Of a DNA stretch of 64,000 nt, positions 5,038 to 20,408 are shown piece after piece. Every line of letters begins with the position of its first letter. Positions within the stretch are counted from its first letter, which is position 1. The translations under genes and the position numbers were made by a program. This DNA comes from an uncultured candidate division WWE3 bacterium (lineage in GTDB: Bacteria > Patescibacteriota > WWE3 > UBA101185 > UBA10185): positions 32,505 to 96,504 of the forward strand of contig CAIRNR010000006.1 of NCBI GenBank assembly GCA_903879985.1, written 5' to 3'. The notes beneath the pieces were generated by a model. That model made no database searches. It saw only the letters and a program-made list of their open reading frames with translations, and was not told the origin of the DNA.

Positions 5038-5634
5038 ATGAAAAATCAATTAGTTCCTATAGTCGTAGAAAAAGAAGCAAACGGAATGGAAAGATCTTAC
5101 GATATCTATTCACGTCTTTTACGCGACTACGTAGTATTTGTTACAGGCCCAATCGATATGGGAGTAGCAAACACTTTTATAGCACAACTATTATTCTTAG
5201 AAAGCCAAGATCCCGACAGAGATATTAGTGTTTACATCAATAGTCCAGGCGGAGACGCTTATGCAGGACTTGCCATGTACGACACAATGAAACACGTTAA
5301 AAACGATATCGTCGCCATAAACGTAGGACTTGCCGCATCAGCCGGAGCTTTAATATTAGCCGCAGGTACAAAAGGTAAAAAGTACGCACTTCCAAGTTCA
5401 TTCACAATGATCCACCAAGTATTGGGCGGAGTTGAAGGCCAAGCAACAGAAGTTGAAATTACAGCAAGACACATGTTAAAACTTAGAGAGCTTTATGCGG
5501 AATGCCTAGCCAACGGAACAGGCCAAAGCGTAGAAAAAGTTAAAAAAGATATAGACCGCGATTACTGGATGGACGCAAAAGAGTCGTTGGAATACGGTAT
5601 TATCGATAAGATTATGACTCCTAAGAAGAAGTAA
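5038..5634 (+). CDS. clpP: ATP-dependent Clp protease proteolytic subunit
   Basis: ERSYDIYSRLLRDYVVFVTGPID...YINSPGG...MIHQVLGG motifs. An alternative start is ATG 5005, which has an upstream AAGGTG and overlaps the tig 3' end. Confidence 0.85.
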   Translation: MKNQLVPIVVEKEANGMERSYDIYSRLLRDYVVFVTGPIDMGVANTFIAQLLFLESQDPDRDISVYINSPGGDAYAGLAMYDTMKHVKNDIVAINVGLAASAGALILAAGTKGKKYALPSSFTMIHQVLGGVEGQATEVEITARHMLKLRELYAECLANGTGQSVEKVKKDIDRDYWMDAKESLEYGIIDKIMTPKKK

Positions 5635-5754
5635 GAGGCGAGTAACCCGGGGCGAGGCGACAAGCTGCGGGCGGGGAGTAGGCGCGATTGTACAGCTTTT
5701 GTGGCTTTCGAAAATTGGTTTAGTACGGTAGAATATACCCGTTATTGCTTTCAT

Positions 5755-5831
5755 GGGCGGTTAGCTCAGTTGGTTAGAGCGCCACATTGACATTGTGGAG
5801 GTCATAGGTTCAATTCCTATATCGCCCACCA
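5755..5831 (+). tRNA. tRNA-Val (anticodon GAC)
   Basis: The cloverleaf was folded by hand. Acceptor stem GGGCGGT/ATCGCCC, D-stem GCTC/GAGC, anticodon stem CCACA/TGTGG with loop TTGACAT, T-stem ATAGG/CCTAT with a TTCAATT loop, and a 3' CCA. An upstream TAGAAT -10-like element is present. Confidence 0.85.
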
Positions 5832-5948
5832 TGAATTAATTATAGGGTCAGTTATTTCCACTTTATCTTTTACTAACCACAAGTCGGCTTGTCGCTATAA
5901 TATAATTGTTCTACCAGAATCACTCCTATATAGGCAGAGAGCAACGTT

Positions 5949-5961
5949 ACTAGGTATAATC
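5949..5961 (+). promoter_or_regulatory. Promoter-like -10 (AGGTATAAT) upstream of the first island gene
   Basis: ttactaggtataatc lies about 8 nt before ATG 5969. A second TATAAT occurs at about 5897. Confidence 0.25.
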
Positions 5962-5968
5962 TAATCAA

Positions 5969-6490
5969 ATGAAAACTTTAACAACCAACACAACTGAACT
6001 AGATAAAAACTCCATATCCCTCGCAGGAGAATTTGCCGTTCTTTCCCAATTAGCACTACGAGGATACGACGCAAATTTAACTCTTGGGCATACAAAAGGT
6101 GTTGATATTCTTATCTCTAATCCTAAAACAAATAAAATGTTTAAAATGGAGGTTAAAACCTCCTATAAAAATGTTCCTACGACATATAAATTATTTGGTC
6201 ATTGTTTAGCCTGGGTAATGGGAGAGAAAAACGAAAATATAGCCGATCAAAATTTATTCTACTGCTTTGTTAATATAGAACATCCTGATTATAAATTCCG
6301 ATTCTTCATAATACCAAGTGCTGTGGTAGCAAAATATGTGAAAGAGCAGCATCAATATTGGATTTCAACAAGGACAGAAGATGTTGAAACTACAACAATG
6401 CGCCAATTTAGAATCGGACTGGAAGAAACGAAATACAACATAGATACGCCATTAGCAAGAGACTACGAAGATATGTGGGACCTTAGTTAG
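5969..6490 (+). CDS. Hypothetical protein with a YraN/Hjc-like PD-(D/E)XK nuclease signature
   Basis: GEFAVLSQLALRGYDANLTLGHTKGVDILIS...MFKMEVKTS reproduces the UPF0102/Holliday-junction-resolvase pattern GE..A..L..GY...D-I/L...hEVKt. Confidence 0.35.
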   Translation: MKTLTTNTTELDKNSISLAGEFAVLSQLALRGYDANLTLGHTKGVDILISNPKTNKMFKMEVKTSYKNVPTTYKLFGHCLAWVMGEKNENIADQNLFYCFVNIEHPDYKFRFFIIPSAVVAKYVKEQHQYWISTRTEDVETTTMRQFRIGLEETKYNIDTPLARDYEDMWDLS

Positions 6491-6580
6491 TAAAACAGTA
6501 ATAATCAGATACTCCCTAACACATTCTTCAGATAATTTAACTTCATATAAAGCCCAAAAGAAAAGGAATACAATTTAACT

Positions 6581-6778
6581 GTGAAAATAACCTTCCAAAT
6601 CGATCCTCAATACGACTACGATATGGTGTTACATATGTTGCGAGGAAAAGATTGGCAAAATAGGGCTAAACGCATGGGTTTAGATTTCTCTTTGGTTGAA
6701 AAAATTAATCAGGCAACCGGCACCGATATGTGTATTTTACTACAGACTAATCCTGCACAAAAAGGCAGCTATATCTAA
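6581..6778 (+). CDS. Hypothetical small protein
   Basis: ORF only; no recognisable motif. Confidence 0.2.
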   Translation: MKITFQIDPQYDYDMVLHMLRGKDWQNRAKRMGLDFSLVEKINQATGTDMCILLQTNPAQKGSYI

Positions 6779-6812
6779 TTATTTATACTAAAGATATCCG
6801 TTAACTCATGTT

Positions 6813-7616
6813 TTGTTGCCAGATGACACAAACCCCACTATAGACTATCCTATAATCAACATGTCCGAATACTACAACAACCAAAGAACACCAAAAAACT
6901 GCTACACAAAAGGCCAAACCGAACCATTTAAACTAAGCCGCTCCAAAATAGACAGCTTCCTCAAATGCCCCCGCTGCTTCTACATCGACCGCGTACTAGG
7001 CACAGGACAACCTCCGGGATTTCCATTTGCATTAAACAGTGCGGTAGACCATCTATTAAAACTAGAATTCGATATTCATAGGGCAGCTGGCTCAAAACAC
7101 CCACTAATCGAAAAATATGGTGTTGATGCAATACCTGCAGCTCACAAAGACTTAAATATATGGCGTGAAAACTTTAAAGGCGTTCAATTTCTACACAAAC
7201 CAACAAATTTATATGTATTTGGAGCCATAGATGACCTCTGGATCAACTCTAAAGGCGAATACATAGTTGTAGACTACAAATCCACAAGTAAGGACGAAGA
7301 AATAACAACATTAAATAAAGATTGGCAGGACGGCTATAAAAGACAAATGGAGGTTTATCAATGGTTGCTAAGACAAAATGGTTATAAGGTTTCGGAGACC
7401 GGTTACTTTGTATATTGTAACGGCGACACCGACAAAGCTGCCTTTGATGCAAAACTTGAGTTTGATATTACCTTGATTCCTTATGTTGGGGATGATAGTT
7501 GGATTGAAAAGGTTCTATTTGATATTAAAAAGTGCTTGGAGTCGGATGTGTTACCGGCCAGCGGTGAGGATTGTGATTATTGCGCATATTTTTATGCTAG
7601 GAAGGGACACGAATGA
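6813..7616 (+). CDS. Cas4-like / RecB-family PD-(D/E)XK nuclease with four Cys (probable Fe-S cluster)
   Basis: N-terminal CPRC, GAIDDLWINSKGEYIVVDYKS (D...E-hDYK), RQMEVYQWLL (QxxxY) and C-terminal CDYCAY. A possible internal start is MSEYYNN at 6861. Confidence 0.6.
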   Translation: MLPDDTNPTIDYPIINMSEYYNNQRTPKNCYTKGQTEPFKLSRSKIDSFLKCPRCFYIDRVLGTGQPPGFPFALNSAVDHLLKLEFDIHRAAGSKHPLIEKYGVDAIPAAHKDLNIWRENFKGVQFLHKPTNLYVFGAIDDLWINSKGEYIVVDYKSTSKDEEITTLNKDWQDGYKRQMEVYQWLLRQNGYKVSETGYFVYCNGDTDKAAFDAKLEFDITLIPYVGDDSWIEKVLFDIKKCLESDVLPASGEDCDYCAYFYARKGHE

Positions 7617-8119
7617 CTGAAATAACAATGTTTGCACCATCAGAAGACTTAATCTTTAACAAAGATATAAACGCTTTAAAAGAAAGAACTCGCCGCGGAA
7701 TCATGTGTATCTTAGGCCGAAAATTAGAAGATCCTAAAAATGAGTACTGGGTTAATTACTGCGTATGCATAAAGAACAATTACTTTATACAAATAATGAC
7801 AACAGAAAAAGAAGATGGGTTATTAATAGAACTAAGCAGCAGCCATTATTCTTCAGGCAGACTAAATCAAGCTAAGCTAGACATTATTTCAAGTTATGGC
7901 TATGAATTTGGAAATAAAATGAATCCAAACTTTCATAAAACCGTAACATTAACCCCGGACTTATTGTTCGAATTAGGTGACGAACTAACCGACATAATGT
8001 ATCGCGTCTTTGACCTTGAACAGCATCAGCCATTGAAGATTGAGTATGATCAGGATGTTTATCGGGCACCTTCACCATTTGCATCACGTTTATTTGGTTG
8101 GTTAAGAGGTATTAAATGA
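7613..8119 (+). CDS. Hypothetical protein (operon member)
   Basis: 4-nt ATGA overlap with the upstream gene; no known motif. Confidence 0.4.
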   Translation: MTEITMFAPSEDLIFNKDINALKERTRRGIMCILGRKLEDPKNEYWVNYCVCIKNNYFIQIMTTEKEDGLLIELSSSHYSSGRLNQAKLDIISSYGYEFGNKMNPNFHKTVTLTPDLLFELGDELTDIMYRVFDLEQHQPLKIEYDQDVYRAPSPFASRLFGWLRGIK

Positions 8120-8754
8120 ACCCAAACAACAAAACACTTTGCGCAACATGCAGCGGATTATTACCAGAAAACAAATGGCGACCTCGCCCAATAAACGAAT
8201 GGCGTGAAGTCATTTTATCCAAAGTATACAAATACGAAAACAACGACACCGATCCTAGATACGCCATATTCTCAAATGTCGCCTACAACCTTCAGTATTT
8301 AGAGTACTTACATAAATGCCTAGAAGAACAATATTTAACATCTGTTATTAGATCACAACTAGTAAAAACATTTACCTTAACATCTTCCCAAATTATTGAA
8401 TGCCTTTTGTATATCAAACTGCTTGATATGAAAGTAAACGAAAGCGAGATTTGGGAGTTTTCTAGAGCTTTGAAAATTGCCGAGCAAAAAAACGCGTACG
8501 GCCTTGGACCAATGTTTTATAAAAACGAATTGAAGAAAATTAAAGAGCTTAGAAATAAAGTTCATTTACAAACTTCTGAGGGTATCGCCGATGCTGATTA
8601 CGCTGTGTTTGCAAAAATTGAAGTGTTAAACGAAGTCAAAAAGATTTTGTTTAGTTTCATCCAAAAGTGTCTTTCGTTGCCAACGCCAACTATGAATGAA
8701 GTTTTTTATTTTTTGTTGCCTCTTGAGGATTATTTGCATTCGAGGAAGGATTAA
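8116..8754 (+). CDS. Hypothetical protein with an N-terminal CxxC (operon member)
   Basis: 4-nt ATGA overlap with the upstream gene; CATCSG near the N-terminus. Confidence 0.4.
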   Translation: MNPNNKTLCATCSGLLPENKWRPRPINEWREVILSKVYKYENNDTDPRYAIFSNVAYNLQYLEYLHKCLEEQYLTSVIRSQLVKTFTLTSSQIIECLLYIKLLDMKVNESEIWEFSRALKIAEQKNAYGLGPMFYKNELKKIKELRNKVHLQTSEGIADADYAVFAKIEVLNEVKKILFSFIQKCLSLPTPTMNEVFYFLLPLEDYLHSRKD

Positions 8755-8759
8755 AAACT

Positions 8760-9686
8760 ATGAAAAATTATTATAGAGTAATGTTAGGTCAAAAAAGCAT
8801 TTATGCTAAAGAAGCCTTTGAGGGTAACTTTATTGGAGCAGGATGGTTAGAAGATATTGATTTTACACATAAATTTCCGGATAACTGGCGCGAATTTAAC
8901 AAAAAATACATTCCTATCTACATAGAAGAGAACCCAGATAAAACAAAAGTTGCAGCCGGATTGGCCTGTGGGATGCTCTATACAATAACTAAAGGTATTC
9001 TTGTGGGTGATATTGTTTTATGTCCAGATGGTAAAGGAAACTACCTTGTAGGTGAAGTAATAGGTGAATATGAATATTTTAAGGGTGCGAATTTACCACA
9101 TAGACGAAAAGTTAGATGGTATCAAGATACGCTATCTCGAGATGAAATAAGTGAATCACTTAAGAATTCCGCTGGAAGCATTGGTACATTAAGTAATATT
9201 TCCAAATACGGAGCCGAAATTGAAGCTTTAATTTCGGGTAACCGTCCAGCTTCCATAATCTCTACGGACGAAACAATAGAAGATCCAAGCCTTTTTGCAC
9301 TTGAAAAACACTTAGAAGACTTTTTGGTACAAAATTGGCACCACACGGAACTTGGGCAACACTACGATATTTATTCAGAAGACGGAGAAATAGTAGGTCA
9401 ACAATACCCAAGCGACACCGGTCCAATTGACATTTTAGCTATAAGTAAAGATAAAAAAGAAATCCTTGTTGTAGAACTTAAAAAGGGAAGAGTAAGTGAT
9501 GTTGTAGTAGGTCAAATTCAAAGATACATGGGTTATGTTAAAGATGAATTAGCTGAAGAGAACCAAACAGTTAAAGGGGTTATTATAGGCTTTGAAGATG
9601 ATGTAAAGATACACAGAGCGTTATCTGTTGCACCCAACATTGATTTTTATACATATAAGATTCATTTTAAGTTAGAGAAAAAGTAA
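8760..9686 (+). CDS. Two-domain protein: N-terminal possibly PUA/EVE-like domain plus a C-terminal NucS/DUF91-like PD-(D/E)XK nuclease domain
   Basis: The C-terminus LEKHLEDFLVQNWHHTELGQHYDIYSEDGEIVGQQYPSDTGPIDILAISKDKKEILVVELKKGRVSDVVVGQIQRYMGYV fits E...D(IDIL)...ELK...Q..RY. The N-terminus has GAGW...ILVGDIVLCPDGKGNYLVGEVIGEYEY, which suggests a PUA-like fold. Confidence 0.5.
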   Translation: MKNYYRVMLGQKSIYAKEAFEGNFIGAGWLEDIDFTHKFPDNWREFNKKYIPIYIEENPDKTKVAAGLACGMLYTITKGILVGDIVLCPDGKGNYLVGEVIGEYEYFKGANLPHRRKVRWYQDTLSRDEISESLKNSAGSIGTLSNISKYGAEIEALISGNRPASIISTDETIEDPSLFALEKHLEDFLVQNWHHTELGQHYDIYSEDGEIVGQQYPSDTGPIDILAISKDKKEILVVELKKGRVSDVVVGQIQRYMGYVKDELAEENQTVKGVIIGFEDDVKIHRALSVAPNIDFYTYKIHFKLEKK

Positions 9687-9759
9687 TTATGGTGGATAAC
9701 GATGTCAGCTTGCTTAATATAAGAAATTTCAGAAATCATTTGGTATATAATGAAGCAGC

Positions 9760-10899
9760 ATGTTAGAAAACAATATTATCAACTCATTTAATGAATTTTT
9801 AACTTACTACGACGCATCCTCAAAGGATGAGCTTTGGAAAAATCAAAGCATAATTTTCCATAATTACTGGACAAGCAAAATCTTAAACAACAGTGATGAA
9901 TTAAACGACTTCGAAACTGATGAAATTGTTAAAATATTAGACAGAAACGGAAAAGGTAATACACACTCTAGTGATGCCATAGCCAAGGCTATGATACCTC
10001 AAGGCGCCTGGAGAAGGATGTTTAATGAAATTAAAAGCGAAGCTAGACTAAAGGAATTATTGAACAATATCTTCTCTGAAAACGATAACTCCAAGAAAAT
10101 TGAATATGTAAATCAATTATATAAATACAACGAAAAAAATAGAAATAGCCTAACAGGTAATAGCGGTACAGCAATAAATTGTATGGTTGCAGCTTGGGAC
10201 CCATTTAAAAACATAAGTGCTGTTTCTCTCAAGCATAGAAAGAAAATTTTTGAATTTCTGCAACTATCGGGGCTTGATTTTGATGAAGATACTCAAGGAA
10301 AAAAGATTGTAGTATCCAACGAACTAATATTAGGTTTTTTTGAAAACAAGGGCATAACAGCATCGGCAAGAACAATTTCTGCCTTCCTCTACAGTGACCC
10401 CATTAAAAAATTATGGGAAATAGACACAGGTGACGAAATTGTTCCTTATACAGAAGAAATACCCATATCCGAAACTGAGGGAACGACAAATCCTTCAATA
10501 TTTTATATGGAAAGCCAACTTGAGGATTTCATTATAGAAAACTGGGACAATACAGAATTAGGTAAAAGTTACGATTTGATTGAAGAAGAGGGTGAAATTG
10601 TAAGCCAACAATATCGCACACCAATAGGCATAATTGATATATTAGTTAAAGAAAAGAAAACAGACCGCTATGTCGTGATTGAACTAAAGAGGGATCAAAC
10701 TAGCGACTCTACTGTAGGTCAGTTAGCACGATACATGGGTTGGATTGAAGAAAATAAAGGCAAAGGCTTGCCACCCAAAGGTATCATCATCACTGCCAAA
10801 TATGACGAGAAATTGTTTTATGCACTTAAAAAAATCAAGGACACCGAAATTTATTTATACGAGGTTAAGTTTAAATTAAACGAATTCAAAAAATCCTAA
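9760..10899 (+). CDS. Two-domain protein: unknown N-terminal domain plus a C-terminal NucS/DUF91-like PD-(D/E)XK nuclease domain (paralog of the previous gene's C-terminus)
   Basis: MESQLEDFIIENWDNTELGKSYDLIEEEGEIVSQQYRTPIGIIDILVKEKKTDRYVVIELKRDQTSDSTVGQLARYMGWI aligns motif-for-motif with the C-terminus of 8760..9686. Confidence 0.5.
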   Translation: MLENNIINSFNEFLTYYDASSKDELWKNQSIIFHNYWTSKILNNSDELNDFETDEIVKILDRNGKGNTHSSDAIAKAMIPQGAWRRMFNEIKSEARLKELLNNIFSENDNSKKIEYVNQLYKYNEKNRNSLTGNSGTAINCMVAAWDPFKNISAVSLKHRKKIFEFLQLSGLDFDEDTQGKKIVVSNELILGFFENKGITASARTISAFLYSDPIKKLWEIDTGDEIVPYTEEIPISETEGTTNPSIFYMESQLEDFIIENWDNTELGKSYDLIEEEGEIVSQQYRTPIGIIDILVKEKKTDRYVVIELKRDQTSDSTVGQLARYMGWIEENKGKGLPPKGIIITAKYDEKLFYALKKIKDTEIYLYEVKFKLNEFKKS

Positions 10900-11024
10900 G
10901 AAACTTTAAAATTTAGTTACAACCATTTATAGATCCGTAAAACAGCATAATCAATGTAATTTTCTTATTCCAATGCTACCATTACTAGTATCGCTAATTG
11001 TTTTGTACACAATAGGATCACTTT

Positions 11025-12140
11025 ATGGCCATAGTGTATAACCAAATAGGTTCATTAACTGAGTTATTAAACAGATGTAGAGAAAAAGGGATTACATTCG
11101 ACTCCATGGAGCAGGTAGAGGAATTTTTAAACAGCTACCATGAAAATATAAAAGTCGCCGCCGAAAAAGCAGAAGAAAACTTCAATAAAACCATAGGAGA
11201 GGCTAACAACACACTGAATATCGCCGTGGAAAATTATGAGGTAGAAAAGAAAGCTATAGTTGCTTTAATTGATAACAAATTAGCAGCTTTGTCTGTTGCA
11301 ATAGCTACGTCACAAAGTACCACCACAAATCCTATTAGCAAAATATTGAATAATCTACGTGTTAATAAATATACACAGGCGCGAGTCAAACTAGAAAACA
11401 ATTATGATGCTGAAATCGAAAAACATCTTAAAATATTCACTGAAGAAATCAACAATGCAAGATCAGACCTTAACTATAAACTTATTAATCACGATATCTT
11501 GACCACTAAATATAAAGACGACTACATAAACAAGCTACAGCATACTTATGAAATTTTAATGGAAAATGGTGCTTTCCTTTACGGTGCTAAAGGCGAACAC
11601 ATGGCCTTAATAGAGCTTAAAAAACTCCCTGACACATATACTGTTATTAACAATGCCTGCTTCAACTTTCGACCGGGAATTCATGATAAAGGAAACAATG
11701 ATTGGATATATTCCGCACAAATTGATCACGTTGTAGTAGGACCAACAGGTATTTTTCTTATAGAAACTAAGAATTGGCGCCAAGAATCTACAACCAATAA
11801 AGATTTCTTTTCTCCGGTTAAACAAATTAATCGCTCGGGACTTGCTATATACGTGCGTCTAAATAATGCAATTAAAGATGGATATTTAATAAGCTTCAAC
11901 ATTCAGTGGGGGACACAAAAGATAACCATGAAAAAGTTGGTATTATTAACAGGTTACAGTCAAAGCGACGAATACGATTTTGTTAAATTAGTAACATTAA
12001 GGGATTTAAGATCGTATATTACTTACGGTAAACTCGTTTATAACGAGACACAAATTAAGGATATTGTGAGGTTCTTTCGTGAAGAGGGCTACGGGAATAA
12101 TACTTCAAGGTCAATCGGAATGGGCGATTTTAGGAGGTGA
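11025..12140 (+). CDS. NERD (nuclease-related domain) protein with an N-terminal coiled-coil
   Basis: GAKGEHMALIELKKLPDTYTVINNACF...QIDHVVVGPTGIFLIETKNW matches the NERD signature G.KGE...L..L......V.N.......IDHVVV...GIF.IE.K. Confidence 0.55.
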   Translation: MAIVYNQIGSLTELLNRCREKGITFDSMEQVEEFLNSYHENIKVAAEKAEENFNKTIGEANNTLNIAVENYEVEKKAIVALIDNKLAALSVAIATSQSTTTNPISKILNNLRVNKYTQARVKLENNYDAEIEKHLKIFTEEINNARSDLNYKLINHDILTTKYKDDYINKLQHTYEILMENGAFLYGAKGEHMALIELKKLPDTYTVINNACFNFRPGIHDKGNNDWIYSAQIDHVVVGPTGIFLIETKNWRQESTTNKDFFSPVKQINRSGLAIYVRLNNAIKDGYLISFNIQWGTQKITMKKLVLLTGYSQSDEYDFVKLVTLRDLRSYITYGKLVYNETQIKDIVRFFREEGYGNNTSRSIGMGDFRR

Positions 12141-12234
12141 TAAAGTAGAATAAATACAGCCCTGCTCCCTAAACTTTATAACGATTATTGAAAAAATTGC
12201 GGAATACACTGAAACAAGAAATTCACTTGCAGAA

Positions 12235-12546
12235 TTGTTACTTAAAGGAATTTTTGTTGGTGTAGTTGAAGATATATGCAGAGGAACATTCACTATAGAA
12301 AAGCTAAAAGAAAATCGATACGTATCATCACGTTTCGTTAAAAAGTGGGAAACTATTTCAAGAGAGTATACCTGTAACCCTAAGATTTCAATTCCATACG
12401 AGGTTAAGGAATTAATCAACCAACAGGCTGAAGTTACTACTTTAAACGACAATATTTTTAAGGATTTTTATGTTACTGAAGAACTTCTTGAAAAACGCAC
12501 TAAACACTTGGTAACGATAAGCTACTATCTACATCTTGCTATGTAA
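12235..12546 (+). CDS. Hypothetical small protein (weak)
   Basis: ORF only; an ORF on the opposite strand overlaps it. Confidence 0.15.
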   Translation: MLLKGIFVGVVEDICRGTFTIEKLKENRYVSSRFVKKWETISREYTCNPKISIPYEVKELINQQAEVTTLNDNIFKDFYVTEELLEKRTKHLVTISYYLHLAM

Positions 12547-12588
12547 TACAGACGCATCCCACGTGAAAAACTATAATCTGGTAAAACT

Positions 12589-13206
12589 CTAATTCATTAC
12601 CTCTGCTTCAAAATAAACCTGCTTCTTGCATTTATCGCATAAAACAAGCCAACCCATTCTCCCGGCCAATTTCCACCAAGTCCAATCGGGACTCTTAAAA
12701 TAAATCACATCAAGTGAATCTAATCCTCTATTACAACCAGTACATTTTATGTCTTTGTGTTTTGGATCATTTTTAAAATCGTCTGCAGTTCTATAAACAT
12801 GCTTTGACGATTTTTCGTTTAGACAAGCAGAAACATCAGGCCATGGAAAAAATACGGTGTGATCGTAATCCTTATATTTAATGGCTTCCTTTTCATAGAA
12901 TTCTTTTATCTGTTTTTCGTCATGGGCTTTTGCTAACTGGCGCTGGTTTTTTTCCTCTTCCCAGGATTTTATAAAACTGGTTACACCTTCTGCGGTTACC
13001 AATACTTCCCTTGGTTTATTTCCACGAGACGGTCCAACAAACCCAGCTTCTTCCATTTCATCGATAATCCTGGCAGCTCGTGCGGATCCTATCGAGAGTT
13101 TTCTTACTAAAAGGTTTGGAGAAGCTTTTGCTGCGGAAACAACTATATTTAAGGCTAAATCGAATAACTCATCATAAGCATCAAACATGGAGTAATTATA
13201 GTACAA
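12589..13206 (-). CDS. FtsK-gamma-like winged-helix domain protein with a C-terminal Zn-ribbon (CxxC...CxxC)
   Basis: DELFDLALNIVVSAAKASPNLLVRKLSIGSARAARIIDEMEEAGFVGPSRGNKPREVLVT closely resembles the FtsK gamma (KOPS-binding) domain. The C-terminus has CTGCN...CDKCKK. Confidence 0.5.
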   Translation of the reverse strand: MYYNYSMFDAYDELFDLALNIVVSAAKASPNLLVRKLSIGSARAARIIDEMEEAGFVGPSRGNKPREVLVTAEGVTSFIKSWEEEKNQRQLAKAHDEKQIKEFYEKEAIKYKDYDHTVFFPWPDVSACLNEKSSKHVYRTADDFKNDPKHKDIKCTGCNRGLDSLDVIYFKSPDWTWWKLAGRMGWLVLCDKCKKQVYFEAEVMN

Positions 13207-13227
13207 ATAGTTAGTTTATAAGGAATC

Positions 13228-13779
13228 TTAATTAGCCGACGTAGCCTTTTTAGCATTATACTCAACAGCAAACTGACTAAACTTCTCTCTGATACTTTTC
13301 ATATCGTATATTCCTAAATCCCATGAATCAAGCCCTCTTGCGTAGACTACATAGTTTGGATATTTCGTATTAAATTTTAGGTTACCATTCATTGGGTCTA
13401 CACCCCACCATTCATCTTTTATAAAACATTCAGCAAAAACATGTCCTCCGACTCTATCAGGATTGTCTGAAAAATAAGATTTAGAGATTACTTCAACATA
13501 CTTTGTGGGTATACCTTTGGCCCGTGCAATAGCTACAAACACAAGAGCAAAATCGGTGCAGCCAGTTGCAAAACCATCGTTTATTATTTGATCTGCGGTT
13601 CTTGTTCTAAAGATATCGTTTTTTTCAATACCATCTGGAGCAGGGTATTTAATATTTTTATTAACCCAGCGTAAAGCTTTAACAACAAATTCGAAATCAG
13701 TAACTTCAATAGAGTTAACTATTTCTGTAATTTTTGGTGTTATTTCAGTTTGTTTTCCTGCCTTTAAAAAGTTTTCCAT
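13228..13779 (-). CDS. Transglutaminase-like superfamily cysteine peptidase-like protein
   Basis: GCTDFALVFVAIARAKGIPTKYV...GGHVFAECF...WWGVDP gives a Cys-His-Asp arrangement. The N-terminal MENFLKAGKQTE is shared with the next gene. Confidence 0.5.
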   Translation of the reverse strand: MENFLKAGKQTEITPKITEIVNSIEVTDFEFVVKALRWVNKNIKYPAPDGIEKNDIFRTRTADQIINDGFATGCTDFALVFVAIARAKGIPTKYVEVISKSYFSDNPDRVGGHVFAECFIKDEWWGVDPMNGNLKFNTKYPNYVVYARGLDSWDLGIYDMKSIREKFSQFAVEYNAKKATSAN

Positions 13780-13794
13780 AGCAGCAGTTTAGCC
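13743..13794 (-). repeat. 52-bp repeat copy A: 15 nt of 5'-UTR plus the first 37 nt of the CDS
   Basis: tttcAgtttgttttcctgcctttaaaaagtTttccatagcagcagtttagcc is near-identical (2 mismatches) to 14316..14367. Confidence 0.8.
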
Positions 13795-13841
13795 TATACT
13801 AAATAGTTCGAATATCCCAACAGGAATCTTACCAAGAAAAC

Positions 13842-14351
13842 CTAATTCTCTTTGAAACACTTAGCCATCTCGACCATTTCAATCTTTTCGTTATCCAAAG
13901 GAAACTCAATACTCTTAACTTTTTTAAAACCAAGGGACTCGTAAAAGGGAACAGCGTTTAAGGTTGCAAATAAAGAAATCTTTTCTTTGCGGTTATTTAT
14001 AAAGTCTCTCTCAATAAAAGAGTATAGAAACTTTCCATAACCTTTACCTTGAAAACTTGGATCTATTTGGATTTGATAAAGCTCTTCGCCGTCAAGGTCA
14101 TATTGGCAAAATCCAACAGTGCTGTTTGCTTCCTTTAGGACAAGCCACTTAGTGTTGCTAAACTGATCTAACACATTTTTTTCGTTTATTTGGTTTACCC
14201 ATTCTTTGACAACGTTTTCTGAGTAAGTTTTTGAATTAGTTTTTAAGATACAGTCTTTGTGAATGTTAACAATATCAGCAACGTCTTCTTTGGTTGCTTC
14301 TAAAAGATTGACCATTTCGGTTTGTTTTCCTGCCTTTAAAAAGTCTTCCAT
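13842..14351 (-). CDS. GNAT family N-acetyltransferase
   Basis: QIDPSFQGKGYGKFLY...LNAVPFYESLGFK acetyl-CoA binding motifs. The N-terminus MEDFLKAGKQTEM is shared with the previous gene. Confidence 0.6.
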   Translation of the reverse strand: MEDFLKAGKQTEMVNLLEATKEDVADIVNIHKDCILKTNSKTYSENVVKEWVNQINEKNVLDQFSNTKWLVLKEANSTVGFCQYDLDGEELYQIQIDPSFQGKGYGKFLYSFIERDFINNRKEKISLFATLNAVPFYESLGFKKVKSIEFPLDNEKIEMVEMAKCFKEN

Positions 14352-14485: not shown

Positions 14486-15820
14486 ATGGACACGCTGAAG
14501 CCCAAAGATTGGCTTTTTCTTATTCCATTTCCAAACCAACCGTTTTTCTTGCTATACGCTCCCTTGCATGGCCTGGTAACAAAGTTATCTCCAGCAGGAG
14601 CTGAACAGCTGCAAAATTTGCTAGATACTGTTTCGGCTGGTGGTAGTAAAGCGGAATTTAACCCAGTTATGGTCAAGTTTCTTACAGATAATAATTTACT
14701 GTCGCTTCCGGCACACTGGGCTATACCCAATAAAGTATTGCCGGGTGAACAAGGAATTACGGTATCTTTGACCAATGACTGTAATCTTCGCTGTATTTAC
14801 TGCTACGCGGGGGCCGGTTGCGATACGATGACAATTCCCTATGACGTAGCAAAGAACGCAATAATTTATGGTTTGCGTTTAGCAAAGGCACGTGGAAGAG
14901 CCCATTTTAGGCTAACATTCCACGGGGGCGGTGAATCACTAAAGCGCAAAGATCTGCTCAAAAAATGTATCATTTTTGCACTGAAAGAAGCTAAGGCGCT
15001 TGGGCTAACGTTGCATGTGAGCATTGTAACTAATGCAACGCTTATTTCTGAAAGTTTTGCACGGTGGTTAAAAGCACACAGCGTTGATAACATCACCGTT
15101 TCACTAGATGGTGTAGCACCGGTACAGGATTTACAACGCCCTCTGGTAAACGGTAAAGGATCGTTTAAAGCCGCCATGTTGGGAATATCTAACCTCAAAA
15201 AAGTTGGCTTAGATTTCTCTATTCGTGCGACTGTTACCAGAAAGAGTGTGGAGGAAATGCCGAATTTTGTAAGATTCCTTGCACACGAAGTTCTTAATGG
15301 TGTAAACGGACTCGTACATTTCGAGCCTTTATCACTTTGTGGAAAGGCACGTGGAGCTACCCATTTAGACGTTGATCCGCAGCTCTTTGTAAAATATTAC
15401 ACTGAAGCGCGCAAGGTCGGGTTAGAGCTGGGTATTCGCATTGTCTGCACGTTAGATACTTTCCGCAAGGATAAATTGCAATTCTGTGGAGCAAGTACAG
15501 GTACCATGTTTTGTGTATGTCCGGATGGTTCCATTTCAGGGTGCTCGCGCGTTACAAAAAAGCAAGATCCCGGCGCGGAGTTGTTTTTCTATGGCAAATT
15601 CAAACCCGCCATAAAGCAACCTGAAATAGACCAAGATGCACAAGCACTTATAGCAAAACATGGTCAATTACCTGAAAAGCTATGTTCAACATGCTTCGCA
15701 AGGTGGAATTGCCAAGGATTCTGTCCGATTTCAAGATTCCTGGGCGAAGATACCTTTCAAGAGTCTTGTATAATTGTGAAGCAGATGCTTCTACAAGACA
15801 TGTTGTTAGAATTCTTATAG
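14486..15820 (+). CDS. Radical SAM / SPASM-domain peptide maturase
   Basis: CNLRCIYCYA (CxxxCxxC), GGGE-like HGGGESL, and a C-terminal Cys cluster CSTCFARWNCQGFCP (SPASM/twitch). Confidence 0.8.
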   Translation: MDTLKPKDWLFLIPFPNQPFFLLYAPLHGLVTKLSPAGAEQLQNLLDTVSAGGSKAEFNPVMVKFLTDNNLLSLPAHWAIPNKVLPGEQGITVSLTNDCNLRCIYCYAGAGCDTMTIPYDVAKNAIIYGLRLAKARGRAHFRLTFHGGGESLKRKDLLKKCIIFALKEAKALGLTLHVSIVTNATLISESFARWLKAHSVDNITVSLDGVAPVQDLQRPLVNGKGSFKAAMLGISNLKKVGLDFSIRATVTRKSVEEMPNFVRFLAHEVLNGVNGLVHFEPLSLCGKARGATHLDVDPQLFVKYYTEARKVGLELGIRIVCTLDTFRKDKLQFCGASTGTMFCVCPDGSISGCSRVTKKQDPGAELFFYGKFKPAIKQPEIDQDAQALIAKHGQLPEKLCSTCFARWNCQGFCPISRFLGEDTFQESCIIVKQMLLQDMLLEFL

Positions 15821-15836
15821 AAAGGAGAAAATAACA

Positions 15837-16016
15837 ATGGGTACCGATTTCACGCAAGTTGTTCGATGGCAACCTCGGTTAGCTGTAAACGCAAACTGCT
15901 CAGCTGAGACATGTCCCTCTGATGGAAAATGCTCTTCAGATGACAGTTCCGGTCATTCTTGCAGCGGCAACACTAACGACCCGTGTCCGCACGACAGTTC
16001 CTGTCCAAAAGACTAA
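15837..16016 (+). CDS. 59-aa Cys-rich putative RiPP precursor peptide (not in the ORF track)
   Basis: An AAAGGAGAAAA RBS lies 6 nt before the ATG, immediately after the rSAM stop. It translates to MGTDFTQVVRWQPRLAVNANCSAETCPSDGKCSSDDSSGHSCSGNTNDPCPHDSSCPKD, with six Cys in C-x-x-(D/E/N) repeats. Confidence 0.55.
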   Translation: MGTDFTQVVRWQPRLAVNANCSAETCPSDGKCSSDDSSGHSCSGNTNDPCPHDSSCPKD

Positions 16017-16033
16017 CGACACCTGTCACAAAC

Positions 16034-16082
16034 AAAGGGACTACTTCTTATATACTTAGAAGTAGTCCCTTTACCTTTTTTT
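16034..16082. terminator. Rho-independent terminator between convergent genes
   Basis: Perfect 15-bp stem AAAGGGACTACTTCT / AGAAGTAGTCCCTTT with an 8-nt loop, followed by ACCTTTTTTT. Confidence 0.65.
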
Positions 16083-16101
16083 AATGAAAAATTGTGTTAA
16101 C

Positions 16102-16983
16102 TTAATATTTTATTTTATTGAGATAGTCTGTTGTCAATTTTTCGGGCTTATCTTTTTCCAAAACCTCTAAATACTTTGCAGGCAATAGCATATCTAAATC
16201 AGTTCCTACTAATGAATAATTCTGTATGTTTTCTTCTGAATGACTTAAATACACTACAAGTGCACGGATTATGGATTCCTCTACATAAGTACTTGGATCC
16301 GCGTATGATCCCAAAACTTCTTCTGGCATTTTTTTGAGATAATCAACTACATCTTCTGGAATGGTTAAGGTACATTTATCTAAATAGCTGTGAGTTAATT
16401 CGTGCAGTATTTGACTTAAATTTATTCCTTCTTTTTTCCATCCAACCATAATGTAATAACCATCTTTAGTTTTTATACATTTTCCTGATGTATCCCAATT
16501 TCTAGTTAAATAAAAAGTCTTAATATCAGGTTCGAAGTCGAAGTGATTTTTAAAAAGATTTTCTATATCACTAAAACGTTCTTCAAATTCGTTTAGGCGC
16601 TTATCAAAATCCGGTTCGTATTGTTTCCACAGATTTTGTAATTCCGGTAATAAAGATATTCGGTCAACATAATCTAAAACTTCTTTGGCAGGAAGCATAA
16701 ACTTACCGTTATCATCATAGCCAGCGGAGTTAAATATTCCCATAAGATAATGGTAGCTATGCATGGGCATATCCAGTTTTGGAGTTCCTGATTTCTCAAG
16801 TATTGCTACAACCTTATCTTTGAGTTCAGAAACCCAATCTTTGTAGCCAATAGTGCGATTATTAGCATAAAACATAGCACAGTACATGTGGAAATGTTTT
16901 TGTAACTTAACTGTTTTAAGTTCCATACCACCATGATACAACAAATGTGGGGTTTTGAACGATAAGCCCACCTCCGGCACCAA
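16102..16983 (-). CDS. Hypothetical HExxH zinc-metallopeptidase-like protein
   Basis: LHELTHSYLD motif; no other recognisable domain. Confidence 0.4.
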   Translation of the reverse strand: MVPEVGLSFKTPHLLYHGGMELKTVKLQKHFHMYCAMFYANNRTIGYKDWVSELKDKVVAILEKSGTPKLDMPMHSYHYLMGIFNSAGYDDNGKFMLPAKEVLDYVDRISLLPELQNLWKQYEPDFDKRLNEFEERFSDIENLFKNHFDFEPDIKTFYLTRNWDTSGKCIKTKDGYYIMVGWKKEGINLSQILHELTHSYLDKCTLTIPEDVVDYLKKMPEEVLGSYADPSTYVEESIIRALVVYLSHSEENIQNYSLVGTDLDMLLPAKYLEVLEKDKPEKLTTDYLNKIKY

Positions 16984-17000
16984 AATGCTAAACTACACGT

Positions 17001-17681
17001 ATGCTTAATCTAAATATTCAATATTCCTTAGAGAAAGATGCTGAAACTTACGTTAGCTACGTCTACCAATTTGAAGCTTTAGAACATGGCAGAGTAAACC
17101 CAAAAAAAGAATTACTCGAAAGACTTGATCAGGAATTACAAAATATTTTGGCTAACACAAAAGATAAGGAAACGGCATATACAGAGGTACTTTCTTACCT
17201 AACTAAAAAGAACTATGAAAACCCACAGTTGCTCAAAAATAGCATCAAAACCCTTGAAGACCGCTGGAACGCTGTAGGAAGCCAAGTAATTTATTCTTTA
17301 GAATTTTTATATAATAAACCCTTTCCGTTTGAAAACGTCACACTGTATTTAACAACCAATAATATATGTCCATATTCTTATGAAGATAAGTATTTCTTTG
17401 CAAACTACAAATATGCCTCAGAACAAATGGATATCGCAAAACATGAACTAAACCATTTTATGTTCTATTACTATTACGATTCATTAAGAAATAAACTGGA
17501 CTTAGAAAAATATGAGCTTCTTAAAGAAGCATTAACGCTTTTTTCAAGTCCTAACCAAACTGGAAAACCAAACGAACTTCCTTTAAGAAAGTTTTTTGAA
17601 ACAAAGTTATGGGCAAATCTTGATGAGGCTATTGCAGCTGGTTGTGATTTCCTATTAAAGTACTATCCTGAAGTCAAATAA
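17001..17681 (+). CDS. Hypothetical HExxH-motif protein
   Basis: AKHELNHFMF motif. Confidence 0.35.
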   Translation: MLNLNIQYSLEKDAETYVSYVYQFEALEHGRVNPKKELLERLDQELQNILANTKDKETAYTEVLSYLTKKNYENPQLLKNSIKTLEDRWNAVGSQVIYSLEFLYNKPFPFENVTLYLTTNNICPYSYEDKYFFANYKYASEQMDIAKHELNHFMFYYYYDSLRNKLDLEKYELLKEALTLFSSPNQTGKPNELPLRKFFETKLWANLDEAIAAGCDFLLKYYPEVK

Positions 17682-17782
17682 TAGGCAGGTACTGTAAGGA
17701 ATAAGGGAATTAAGCTGTAACAACGCAAAAGTTCCAAACACACAATACGCAAATAAAATACCAGTGTTATCATTAAAACCAG

Positions 17783-18163
17783 ATGCTCATATACAAATAC
17801 ATCGAAAACTACTTTGAAGATAATCCGGGTGCAGAAGCTTTCTGCGAGGAACACGACATAGTATATTTCACACCTACACCTGAGCGAAAAGCATGGCTTG
17901 AAAACTGGCTTAAAACTGCAAAACCTCCGATTATTGAATGTACGCCTGATGTTGTTTGCTATTGGAGATACTTTGGGGTTTGGGGAGAATATCACCCAAA
18001 CAATAATTCCATATCAATATGCCCAATTGAAATAGAAAAGGCCGGGGGTTTGGAGGAGGTTATTAGACACGAACTAGTGCACCTGCAACATCCTGAAGCT
18101 AACGATATGCCTCACGAGGAAAAAGAGGATTATATAAATAACGCAGGTAAAAGCAAAGAATAG
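17783..18163 (+). CDS. Small HExxH protein, SprT/WLM-like
   Basis: IRHELVHLQHPE is HExxH plus a downstream His, as in SprT-like domains. Confidence 0.35.
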   Translation: MLIYKYIENYFEDNPGAEAFCEEHDIVYFTPTPERKAWLENWLKTAKPPIIECTPDVVCYWRYFGVWGEYHPNNNSISICPIEIEKAGGLEEVIRHELVHLQHPEANDMPHEEKEDYINNAGKSKE

Positions 18164-18420
18164 CCTAGTCTTCCTAAAGAGTTTTTTAATCGATGACTCT
18201 GCAAAAGTTCCAAACATCCTCCATAATCTCCCACCAGGCTTTTCAGCTTGGTATACCAACATTATTTTTATATACCCAACTAGGAATTTAGACCTATCCA
18301 CGACCAAACCACTACCCTATAGTTTGACTATTTACCCATTTTATCCTATAATTACATCATAAATCGTTATTAAACCGCACAATTATGACGGCTAATCAAA
18401 AATAAAAAGGGAGATAAAAA

Positions 18421-18681
18421 ATGGTACGCAACACAATGATGCTACCCAAAGTAATGGGCGATGAAACAACTGACACCAGAGATGCGTTGGAAAAACTGGG
18501 ATTCATCATAACCAACGACACATATTCCGACTCATACGAAGTGTTGGCACCGGAAGGTTGGACAATAGAATGGAAAGGTCGCGATGGCGCTGTTTTTAAT
18601 GAAAAACATGAGGCTGTTGTCTGGCTTTGGAGAAAAACGGATTTCTGGCAACCGATATTTACGATGCGTCTGCATCCCTAA
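18421..18681 (+). CDS. Hypothetical small protein
   Basis: AAAAGGGAGAT RBS; preceded by a partial copy of the repeated leader. Confidence 0.35.
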   Translation: MVRNTMMLPKVMGDETTDTRDALEKLGFIITNDTYSDSYEVLAPEGWTIEWKGRDGAVFNEKHEAVVWLWRKTDFWQPIFTMRLHP

Positions 18682-18715
18682 GTCGCCAGAAATAAACAGA
18701 AGGATGTATATTTAG

Positions 18716-18843
18716 CACAAGAGGCAAACAGTAGAAATCCTTACTGCTTTGCCTCCTAACTCAAGTTTATTTTTTTAAAGTAGATTTAAGTTAGGAAGTT
18801 TAACCGCATAAATGACTGCGGAATCATAATCAAAGGAGACGAC
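18716..18843 (+). repeat. Repeated structured intergenic element, copy 1 (hairpin, T-run and conserved leader)
   Basis: GAGGCAAACAGTAG...TACTGCTTTGCCTC hairpin, then CTAACTCAAG...TTAAGTTAGG, then CCGCA...TGCGG just before the AAAGGAGA RBS. Paralogous to 19325..19457 with compensatory changes. Confidence 0.6.
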
Positions 18844-19305
18844 GTGAAAACGATAAAGGCTACAATAGAAATTTTGGATAAGTTACATCAAGTACTGATG
18901 GAATGCGGTGAAACTGCCGAGATTACTGGGGAAAATAAAAAGTTTTACTTTATTGAAAAACCCAGCAGAGTAATCTCAAAGAGATCAAAAGGATTGGTAA
19001 TTTTGACCCCGGATGAAGTCCTAAATCTTCACCTGCAAAGACTTGACGGAGAAGATTTTGAAAAGTTTCTCAAAAATAGCACACTGGGAGATCAATGGGC
19101 GCCTGCAATACACACCATCTGGAACACATACAAACAACGTGCAGGTGTGGAAACAGTGGAGGACCATGCTGATAACTATAACCTCGGGCATGGATTAATT
19201 CGATACTGGTTCAAAACAGCACGAAAGAATTTATGGTACTGCGAAGTGCGCCAGAAGGAATCAGAAACGATAATGTCCAGGTATTTTCATTTTTACGGGT
19301 ACTAA
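18844..19305 (+). CDS. Hypothetical protein (GTG start)
   Basis: AAAGGAGAC RBS; ORF only. Confidence 0.35.
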   Translation: MKTIKATIEILDKLHQVLMECGETAEITGENKKFYFIEKPSRVISKRSKGLVILTPDEVLNLHLQRLDGEDFEKFLKNSTLGDQWAPAIHTIWNTYKQRAGVETVEDHADNYNLGHGLIRYWFKTARKNLWYCEVRQKESETIMSRYFHFYGY

Positions 19306-19324
19306 AAGTAATCAGAAAATGCGC

Positions 19325-19457
19325 AGTGTAACAAGGGACAAACAGTAGCACAATTTTACTGCTTGTCCCCTAACTTAAGTCTATTTACCAAAGTAGGTTT
19401 AAGTTAGGAATTTAATCGCATACGATCTGATGCGAAATTATAAAAGGAGAGACAGCT
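19325..19457 (+). repeat. Repeated structured intergenic element, copy 2
   Basis: GGGACAAACAGTAG...TACTGCTTGTCCCC, then CCTAACTTAAG...CTTAAGTTAGG, then TCGCAT...ATGCGA before the AAAGGAGAG RBS. Confidence 0.6.
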
Positions 19458-19691
19458 ATGCCAATGAAAATCGATAGTATGAAAGTGGGCGAAAAATACA
19501 AGATAAATGTTCACGACGAAGACAACAAGCCGCTAACCCTGGAATTCACCATCCTTGAAATAGATTGGTATCCAAGTGCCACGGGCAGAGGATTTTTCCA
19601 CGGCACGAAGGTTCAATTTACAACGGGAGAAATTGAAATCCTTCCATTTCTCGTGCTTGATTCCGCTGAAAAAGTAAAGGAAGAGGCATAA
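19458..19691 (+). CDS. Hypothetical small protein
   Basis: RBS plus ORF; a terminator follows. Confidence 0.35.
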   Translation: MPMKIDSMKVGEKYKINVHDEDNKPLTLEFTILEIDWYPSATGRGFFHGTKVQFTTGEIEILPFLVLDSAEKVKEEA

Positions 19692-19709
19692 GTTAATATC
19701 TGCACTAAA

Positions 19710-19756
19710 AGGGTCTTTGACAGTTAAAATGCTGCTAAAGACCCTGATTTTTTTTA
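19710..19756 (+). terminator. Rho-independent terminator
   Basis: AGGGTCTTT...AAAGACCCT stem followed by GATTTTTTTTTATT. Confidence 0.55.
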
Positions 19757-19815
19757 TTCTTTAACAACACAAAAATTCCATTGACACTAGAAATTAAATA
19801 GAACTAAACTAAGAT

Positions 19816-20007
19816 ATGAAAAAGATTGCAATCTTACTTGGCATAATTATATTAATTTTAATGGCATATTTTTCGTATTCTTTCTTTTACATGAAATCCT
19901 TCTTAGGTAAACCTACTATTACTTGTGCCAAAGGAGAATATATACATCAAGGTCCTATTTGGCCAAATCCTAATTATTGTTGTCCAAAAGACACGATTTG
20001 TGACTAA
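19816..20007 (+). CDS. Small membrane/secreted Cys-rich peptide (63 aa)
   Basis: N-terminal hydrophobic helix MKKIAILLGIIILILMAYF, then 4 Cys (TCAKGEY...YCCPKDTICD). Confidence 0.3.
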   Translation: MKKIAILLGIIILILMAYFSYSFFYMKSFLGKPTITCAKGEYIHQGPIWPNPNYCCPKDTICD

Positions 20008-20143
20008 TAAATAAGTTAAACCTCTAATTCACGCGAACATCTTATAGCGTTTGACCTTTTATCCGAGTACAGCTACAATACCAAGCAATTGCAATATTAA
20101 CCGCAACAAATAAAGTAGCGGAATAAACGGAAACGGAGGAAAG

Positions 20144-20407
20144 ATGATCTTAAAAGATTTTGTTGAAGGAAAAGAGTACATATTATCCAATGTACCAGGG
20201 CTGACCACGTTTACCTTTGAAACAAACTCCGACAAACGTGTGCTTTTTACCGCGCCAGAAGTGCGCTTAAAGTTTTTGCAACCGAATCTGGAATTCGATG
20301 GCAATTACTTAACCTTTGAGGTTCTCGATGGCGAGCACAAAGGAAAGACAGTGGACATCATGGTGAGCAACGTCGACCGGATTTCTGAAAGCGAAAAGGA
20401 AAACTAA
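20144..20407 (+). CDS. Hypothetical protein
   Basis: GGAGGAAAG RBS; translationally coupled (taacATG) to the next ORF. Confidence 0.35.
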   Translation: MILKDFVEGKEYILSNVPGLTTFTFETNSDKRVLFTAPEVRLKFLQPNLEFDGNYLTFEVLDGEHKGKTVDIMVSNVDRISESEKEN

Positions 20408-20408
20408 C

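Follow-up and report, generated by a model that had tools for sequence, protein, structure and literature searches.

A likely defence island of stacked nuclease modules beside a tRNA-Val gene of a candidate division WWE3 bacterium

Enzymes that join a variable sensor to a nuclease domain are described from several restriction and defence systems, with which we compare here a cluster of five genes (g1 to g5) at positions 6813-10899 of a 64-kb stretch of DNA from an uncultured candidate division WWE3 bacterium; the whole stretch is referred to as the window. Type IV restriction enzymes, represented by McrBC, GmrSD, Mrr, MspJI/AspBHI and PUA/EVE-HNH proteins, have EVE, SRA, YTH and ASCH domains as established readers. 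END nucleases use an inactivated EndoIII/Ogg domain as their sensor of hypermodified phage DNA, and the effector is a PLD nuclease, a NucS-like PD-DExK nuclease or an McrB partner (Yee et al. 2025, PMC12191111, bioRxiv 10.1101/2025.03.31.646159). One of them, ENDMag (MDV2503288.1), combines an Ogg/iEndoIII sensor with a NucS-like PD-DExK nuclease and restricts phages with modified guanine, and the top HHpred matches of its sensor are the Ogg enzymes of S. solfataricus, M. jannaschii and T. maritima (PMC12191111). PDC-S02, a single-gene candidate of PADLOC-DB v2, entered PADLOC by 'guilt-by-embedding' in type I restriction-modification (R-M) operons and, in one survey of cold-seep genomes, ranked within the top twelve system types by abundance.

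An earlier sequence-only reading had presented the cluster as one undescribed five-gene defence operon. That the region is related to defence is borne out, and the five genes are real and almost certainly anti-phage. However, the gene set is not co-conserved in loci anchored on g4, g3, g5 or g1, and g4 as well as the C-terminal part of g5 already fall under a named PADLOC candidate, PDC-S02; therefore, neither a single module nor its novelty is supported. The supposed 'module' is better read as a defence island whose parts are of known kinds, and as a five-gene system the cluster does not stand as a new defence module. Among its parts, g4 is already catalogued as PDC-S02, a candidate without validated function, the architecture of g5 was, by analogy, most likely published in 2025 with ENDMag, and g3, as modeled, represents a new HEPN-fold family with an unusual Rx3H motif. 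The comparison establishes the domain identities, the conservation of the catalytic residues listed below for g1, g3, g4 and g5, the genomic contexts and the lack of co-conservation.

Gene neighbourhoods and the defence island

The five open reading frames (ORFs) lie on one strand, at 6813-7616, 7613-8119, 8116-8754, 8760-9686 and 9760-10899. They run head-to-tail with ATGA overlaps or short gaps, as had been stated: ATGA overlaps join g1 to g2 (7613-7616) and g2 to g3 (8116-8119), whereas g3 and g4 are separated by 5 nucleotides (nt) and g4 and g5 by 73 nt. Two details of that description had to be amended. The true start of g1 is likely the ATG at 6861, which is chosen by the gene callers on public contigs and gives a protein of 251 amino acids (aa) from 6861..7616 on the + strand, with the TTG at 6813 as the alternative start; moreover, the cluster runs past 6813-10899, with a tRNA-Val gene and a 173-aa ORF upstream and a NERD-domain gene downstream.

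The neighbourhoods of homologs were surveyed with g4, g3, g5 and g1 as anchors. With g4 as the anchor, 80 loci from species-representative genomes, whose g4 homologs are 58-83% identical, were each searched with all window proteins; they range from Patescibacteria to Gammaproteobacteria, Bacteroidota and a Nitrosopumilus metagenome-assembled genome. Relatives of g2, g3, the g5 N-terminus and the 173-aa protein were each found in 0 of these 80 loci, a relative of g1 in four and one of the NERD gene in one, as a weak match. Such identity across distant phyla, with plasmids included, indicates that g4 has spread by horizontal transfer. The 80 metagenome loci anchored on g3 contained no other window gene in any case, and the neighbours of g3 homologs display lineage-specific synteny only. 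Eight independent neighbourhoods anchored on g5 are all different; among their contexts are a type I/IIG R-M system with Shedu, a conjugative region, DUF2779 accompanied by Shedu in one case and by a cytosine methylase in another, and a Schlafen-like gene that stands with two Dam methylases in one locus and with a large helicase in another, and relatives of g1 to g4 occur in none of the seven independent g5-anchored loci with DNA. Likewise, g2 to g5 were not found in the g1-anchored loci from IMG/VR. The contigs with an identical g5 or ClpP all come from one population and carry an identical island, with one single-nucleotide polymorphism in 7.1 kb; because all carrying contigs represent this one population, the five-gene arrangement is known from one strain only, and neither an 'empty site' nor strain variants emerged by way of identical g5 and ClpP.

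In light of these neighbourhoods, we regard the region from about 5.8 to 12.5 kb (~6.6 kb) as a likely defence island immediately 3' of tRNA-Val in a low-GC genome; the five genes form its core, and independently mobile, mostly single-gene nuclease modules are stacked in it by chance. The tRNA-Val (GAC) gene (5755..5831, + strand), predicted by ARAGORN and matched by Rfam RF00005 at 72.5 bits, lies 5' of the cluster and is a candidate landmark for the insertion of the island, tRNA genes being classic landmarks for genomic islands.

Several observations weigh against this island. The genes g1, g2, g3 and g4 are tightly coupled by the two ATGA overlaps, the 5-nt gap and the Shine-Dalgarno-like motifs that precede each of g2, g3 and g4, and, as a result of this coupling, they are probably co-transcribed here and could cooperate. 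In three of the four g4-anchored loci that hold g1, the two genes are directly adjacent (L001, L022, L023), each arrangement being different. No integrase was found within 5600-14000, and the same interval contains no att-like direct repeat of the tRNA-Val 3' end, only short matches, none of which involves the tRNA; since neither of these nor an 'empty site' relative turned up, mobility of the island at this locus is what we infer. Furthermore, one PDC-S02 representative, assayed in E. coli B against T7, T5 and T4, was not among the four of eight candidates that were protective. Pfam and PDB profile searches gave no relative that would assign a fold to the N-terminal domain of g4. Finally, the motif of g3 is Rx3H, against the canonical HEPN Rx4-6H.

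Sequence motifs give some indication of how the cluster may be transcribed. The 173-aa gene, g1 (ATG at 6861) and g5 each have a TATAAT hexamer (5950-5968, 6850-6860 and 9745-9759) at a distance of only 5-9 nt from the ATG. So short a spacing points to transcripts that are leaderless or have very short leaders, and to more than one transcription unit. The co-transcription units are thus probably g1-g4 and, separately, g5, a call that is based on motifs because a promoter and terminator scan of the cluster gave no signal exceeding the shuffled expectation.

Two predicted sensor-nucleases, g4 and g5

The genes g4 and g5 have a common NucS-like C-terminus of ~143 aa (43% identity, E=7e-34) and unrelated N-termini; the paralogy had been noticed before, although it was placed in 90 aa. 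Both exceed the cutoff of 24 bits for Pfam NucS_C, g4 with 31.6 and g5 with 46.8 bits, the g4 family profile matches NucS 2vld in the PDB (E=5.6e-4), with IDIL, ELK and Q..RY aligned to the nuclease core, and 2vld is also the top structural match of the g5 model. The PD-(D/E)XK core that the sequence-only reading had proposed is therefore supported, and so is the conservation of its catalytic residues: D224, E239 and K241 do not vary among 33 g4 homologs from many phyla, nor do D293, E308 and K310 among 44 g5 homologs. The C-terminal nuclease fold, the D-E-K residues and the Q..Y motif are shared with NucS/EndoMS. As sensor-nuclease fusions, g4 and g5 are analogous to type IV restriction enzymes in that a variable sensor candidate is attached to a PD-(D/E)XK domain, which agrees with what had been proposed for them.

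The protein encoded by g4 consists of an N-terminal domain of aa 1-165 (8760..9254, + strand), which precomputed Pfam annotation identifies as DUF8426 (PF28530), and the nuclease domain of aa 167-308 (9258..9686, + strand). It is a full-length match to PDC-S02, with E=1.4e-160 over 1-307/308 for PDLC04799 and E=3.6e-156 for PDLC04824, and the C-terminal 139 aa of g5 match the same models (E=1.1e-42). In contrast, the g5 N-terminal domain lies outside every PDC-S02 hidden Markov model, PDC-S02 is a single gene and not a five-gene system, and g4 in the window adjoins no R-M genes. The embedding in type I R-M operons that is usual for PDC-S02 is seen again in the 80 g4 loci: hsdM/S-type genes (N6_Mtase/Methylase_S) were found near g4 homologs in 41 of them, mostly 1-3 genes upstream, hsdR-type genes in 38, mostly 1-3 genes downstream, and a YgjP-like peptidase in 19. 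On an Acinetobacter plasmid, the RefSeq annotation reads hsdM-hsdS-[g4 homolog]-Abi-hsdR-SprT.

DUF8426 is represented by 999 representative clusters (50% identity) at E<=1e-3, in which it is placed N-terminally, internally or C-terminally. Its fusion partners are McrB-type AAA_5, GmrSD_N/C with RAMA, HSDR_N, Mrr_cat, Mrr_cat_2, HNH_2 and NucS_C, and the combination with AAA_5 was found once together with MrcB_N and DUF4357. In terms of architecture, DUF8426 holds the reader slot of type IV restriction enzymes; the sensor candidate of g4 is thus common to McrB-type, GmrSD, Mrr_cat and HNH proteins, and its fusion to these and to NucS effectors supports the sensor-nuclease function inferred for g4. 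Unlike EVE, SRA, YTH or ASCH, it is not among the established readers. The PUA/EVE-like character attributed earlier to the g4 N-terminus was not recovered: Pfam gave no PUA-superfamily match at E<=0.1, PUA_4 appeared at E=0.01 in one of 32 diverse members of the N-terminal family, and profile searches with conserved and diverse alignments found no credible PDB relative. In the proposed mechanism, the N-terminal domain of g4, a predicted DNA or modification reader, would detect something particular to foreign DNA, most probably a modified base, after which the D-E-K nuclease would cut, as in type IV restriction. DUF8426 is of interest as an abundant module that fills the reader position in enzymes of the McrB, GmrSD, Mrr, HNH and NucS types, and learning its target would give PDC-S02 a function.

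The plasmid mentioned above also offers a side observation, in that the g4 homolog (L177:8140-9075) is followed by an 'Abi family protein' within the same type I R-M operon; this pairing of a NucS-like nuclease with Abi recalls g3-g4 of the window, even if Abi and g3 are not homologous. A g4 homolog with equal or almost equal identity is present on six other Acinetobacter plasmids. In another locus (L029:8899-12354), a type I HsdR of 1151 aa with a C-terminal Schlafen/AlbA_2 domain adjoins the g4 homolog.

The structural model of g5 (pLDDT 83.3) contains an all-helical N-terminal domain of aa 1-220 (9760..10419, + strand), a disordered linker of aa 222-247 and the nuclease domain of aa 248-379 (10501..10899, + strand). 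The best non-nuclease structural match of the helical domain is T. maritima Ogg, a match that was reproduced neither by Foldseek, which confirmed NucS/EndoMS, nor by sequence profiles; a relaxed Pfam scan of the family gave only weak matches to DUF3253, in 25 of 44 members. A hairpin resembling the helix-hairpin-helix (HhH) motif, L131-T-G-x-S-G136-x-A138, is invariant in the family. At the position of the HhH lyase Lys, as aligned by eye and without superposition, 40 of the 44 members have Gly and four have Ala; of the Asp-Arg pair past the hairpin, Asp159 is present in 38 of 44 members, whereas g5 of the window has His159. The family comprises 799 matches, the best 120 of which are all full-length (~380 aa) and belong to candidate-phyla bacteria (e.g., Curtissbacteria, Wolfebacteria and Yanofskybacteria), Nitrospinae and Woesearchaeota; IMG/VR contained no g5 relatives.

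These features resemble those of ENDMag in the Ogg-like match of the helical domain and in the NucS-like nuclease joined to the sensor candidate, and those of END nucleases in general in the HhH-like hairpin that, in the by-eye alignment, has no Lys at the lyase position. They differ from the prototype END-PaCF1, the nuclease of which is a PLD, while that of g5 is a PD-(D/E)XK domain. Because of this architecture, the Ogg-like match, the hairpin and the missing lyase Lys, we lean, with some reserve, towards assigning g5 to the ENDMag type of END nuclease, a likeness drawn from the description of ENDMag and not from its sequence. The putative Ogg-like HhH sensor of g5 would probe for non-canonical (hypermodified) bases and the nuclease would cleave the DNA that carries them, and both g4 and g5 would work as autonomous sensor-nucleases; the substrates, the dependence on modification and any cooperation between the genes are inferred from these likenesses. 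So read, g5 would extend the END-nuclease idea, in which repair glycosylase folds serve as sensors of hypermodified DNA, to a large family of ~380-aa proteins. That so small a genome has two putative modification-sensing nucleases next to each other, each with its own kind of sensor, hints at the importance of modified-DNA phages for these organisms.

As a further observation, DUF2779 proteins recur beside both g3-like and g5-like genes. Pfam confirms them at or near g5-like genes in L172:9137-10573 (L172/L173) and L179:3888-5483; adjoining g3-like genes, L082:1155-2642 is confirmed by Pfam and L084:2773-3375 has the same N-terminal sequence.

The genes g1, g2 and g3 and alternative readings

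The product of g1 is, by sequence, a Cas4/RecB-like nuclease with predicted Fe-S Cys ligands, which is a known kind. It scores 55.6 bits against PDDEXK_1 (cutoff 22, E=9.5e-15), and Cas4 models match it at about 1e-10 to 1e-9 (PADLOC 3e-10; NCBIfam); however, it remains under the curated Cas4 cutoffs, with 16 bits for Cas_Cas4 PF01930 (<22.7) and 38.3 bits for TIGR00372 (<65). With the Cas4/RecB family, which includes Cas4, the AddB nuclease domain, DUF2779 and phage Cas4-like exonucleases, g1 shares GAIDD, DYK and QxxxY as well as conserved Cys residues that flank the core on both sides; in a motif alignment, its homologs keep CPRC, GAIDD, VVDYK and QxxxY. The Cas4-like character noticed earlier thus holds for CPRC and QxxxY, whereas the C-terminal Cys residues are three (KC...DCxxC), kept in four full-length homologs, and not two. 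The Cys pattern of Cas4 is C ... CxxCx5C, unlike the layout CxxC ... C-x(n)-CxxC of g1. In agreement with the sequence-only reading, the 64-kb window contains no CRISPR-like repeats, and cas1 and cas2 were not found among 29 window ORFs scanned against PADLOC or Pfam, a scan that was not exhaustive; besides g1, it returned two weak CRISPR-type matches, g5 to a Cas4 model (1.6e-6) and an FtsK_gamma protein to Csa3 (0.0064). A genuine CRISPR-associated Cas4 was rejected for g1 on the basis of the scores below cutoffs, the lack of CRISPR-like repeats and the non-CRISPR clusters that its homologs adjoin.

At 42-75% identity, homologs of g1 repeatedly take the last place in defence-like clusters that have nothing else in common. 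One closes a Gabija-like cluster of an OLD-type ATPase and UvrD (L174:3803-8762), another ends a four-gene cluster (L189:3079-8753), and others stand beside proteins of 1063 and 948 aa (L175/176; L175:2007-8756), of 938 aa (L002) or of 839 and 895 aa (L188:2781-8753); in L001 (9268-12503) and L023, the homolog occurs with g4 and hsdM/S. Because its homologs close so many unrelated defence-like clusters, g1 behaves as a generic accessory or island-associated nuclease and not as a partner of g4 and g5, and it may trim DNA ends as an end-processing accessory. The role of a 'processor' for g4 and g5 that had been suggested for it would draw only on the proximity of g1 and g4 in four of the 80 loci. 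No g1 match was found in INPHARED phages. The IMG/VR 'viral' contigs L174, L175 and L176 carry defence-like clusters and resemble cellular fragments more than phage genomes, L174 and L175 sharing syntenic membrane-protein genes. Across the genomes with g1-type clusters, it may be usual for a Cas4-like nuclease to be appended to them.

The two middle genes had been described as domain-less, which is correct for g2 but not for g3, for which a HEPN fold is predicted. The ORFan g2 (7613..8119, + strand; 168 aa) is preceded by a GGAAGG motif and, through the ATGA overlap at either end, is translationally coupled to g1 and g3. Searched against 5.8 billion proteins, it matched only itself; no family (including those of Pfam, PADLOC and NCBIfam) and no PDB entry matched, and phmmer --max found no relatives among the neighbour ORFs of g3 or g4 loci. 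By its sequence, it is a lineage-specific, unexplained ORFan. The adjoining g3 (8116..8754, + strand) encodes a stand-alone protein and predicted RNase with 85 homologs, none of which carries a Pfam domain except one longer, fusion-like match; Pfam HEPN families matched none of 23 members even at E<=1. The AlphaFold model on the family alignment is confident (pLDDT 83.9, pTM 0.82) and displays the four-helix up-down arrangement of the HEPN fold, with the HEPN toxins of HEPN-MNT modules (5yep, 8xdj and 7ae2) among its best structural matches. The model therefore places g3 in a HEPN-fold family that is not yet catalogued and for which Pfam has no model. Its invariant signature comprises N54, Y57, Q60, E63, K84, E95, R146-N147-x-x-H150 and D161. 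The motif R146-N-K-V-H150 is one residue shorter than canonical HEPN motifs, and a second His at R+6 is present only in more distant aligned members (28-39% identity to g3). Compared with HEPN toxins and abortive-infection proteins (the HEPN-MNT toxin SO_3166 and others, AbiA, Csm6 and RnlA), g3 differs in this R-x3-H motif, in having no MNT partner and in the about 45 extra N-terminal residues that precede its core, which include Cys in close homologs. In the island, g3 would act as an HEPN RNase of the abortive-infection or toxin type, possibly restrained by g2.

The two genes might form a toxin-antitoxin or abortive-infection pair, g3 being the HEPN toxin and g2 its fast-evolving cognate antitoxin or regulator; such a pair would also fit into the island, but we consider it unlikely. 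It is suggested by the HEPN-MNT toxins among the structural matches of g3, by the 4-nt overlap of g2 with g3 and by the fact that in ~20 of 48 other g3-anchored loci (of L081-L160) a same-strand ORF overlaps the g3 homolog or ends no more than 3 nt upstream of it. However, no common family links these upstream ORFs, among which are a methylase C-terminus and proteins of ~450-465 aa, many g3 homologs have no close upstream partner, and g2 matches no MNT or nucleotidyltransferase family. The variety of upstream partners looks as if the HEPN gene had been appended to varied partners.

For g4, a PrrC-like logic may be considered, in which it guards a type I R-M system and is triggered when a phage inhibits Hsd, the copy in the window being an orphan whose partner was lost. 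About half of the g4 homologs do sit between hsdM/S and hsdR, and PADLOC's flagging of the family by 'guilt-by-embedding' goes back to this R-M context, but about half of the homologs are likewise without hsd genes, of which the 29 window ORFs scanned include none, and the partners to which the g4 N-terminal domain is fused (McrB-type GTPases, GmrSD, Mrr and HNH) work autonomously as type IV effectors. We therefore think such a guard role quite improbable.

It is similarly doubtful, and slightly more so, that g1-g4, possibly with g5, form a lineage-specific composite operon, that is, a young multi-effector unit assembled from mobile parts and not yet present in other genomes. In such a unit, the two modification readers (DUF8426 and the Ogg-like domain) would trigger the sensor-nucleases to nick or cut the DNA of an invader, the g1 exonuclease would process and degrade the cut ends, and g3 would be a new HEPN RNase of the Rx3H kind that provides an abortive backup at the RNA level, with the ORFan g2 in control of it as adaptor or regulator. 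The arrangement of all genes on one strand, the overlaps, the 5-nt gap and the Shine-Dalgarno-like motifs at g2, g3 and g4 would fit this organization, as would the absence of terminator-like signals above chance inside the cluster, the direct adjacency of g1 to g4 in L001, L022 and L023 and the habitual position of g1 at the end of other defence clusters. Against it stand the 0 of 80 g4-anchored loci with g2, g3 or g5, the 80 g3-anchored loci with nothing of the set, the lack of any homolog of g2, the occurrence of each of the components alone in many other contexts and an organization known from a single strain population.

Last, it is very improbable that g4 and g5 are housekeeping NucS/EndoMS-type mismatch-repair endonucleases and not defence enzymes, an identity that we rejected: although NucS_C is above its cutoff for both, NucS is their closest solved structure and RefSeq calls homologs 'endonuclease NucS domain-containing protein', the pair scores 35.8 and 47.5 with NCBIfam equivalogs (NF003270, cutoff 216; cutoffs 216-252), the NucS N-terminal domain has no match in either and is replaced by different modules (all-helical in g5), and their distribution is horizontally transferred, as the 58-83% identity across distant phyla and plasmids indicates, and defence-associated, with R-M and defence genes as neighbours.

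Surroundings of the cluster in the window

The island interpreted here as a stack of mobile modules begins, past the tRNA gene, with the 173-aa ORF (5969..6490, + strand), whose TATAAT hexamer lies 9 nt before the ATG. It matches phrog_26985 (E=1.9e-10) and no Pfam, PADLOC or NCBIfam model, and no relatives were found in g3-, g4- or g5-anchored loci. Downstream of g5, the cluster is completed by a further nuclease-related gene, whose NERD-domain protein of 371 aa (11025..12140, + strand) matches PF08378 NERD (E=1.4e-14) and has weak similarity to MADS6 of NCBIfam; apart from the one weak match, the other anchored loci hold no relatives of it. Of the 29 ORFs scanned, 19 lie elsewhere in the window, and these have housekeeping functions or no defence match.

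At the edge of the island, a 205-aa protein (12589-13206, - strand) consists of the FtsK gamma (KOPS-binding winged-helix) domain alone with C-terminal CxxC pairs. Further on (14486-21080), a 59-aa ORF and a series of mostly small ORFs without Pfam matches come after a radical SAM protein of 444 aa, which together may represent a peptide-modification cluster.

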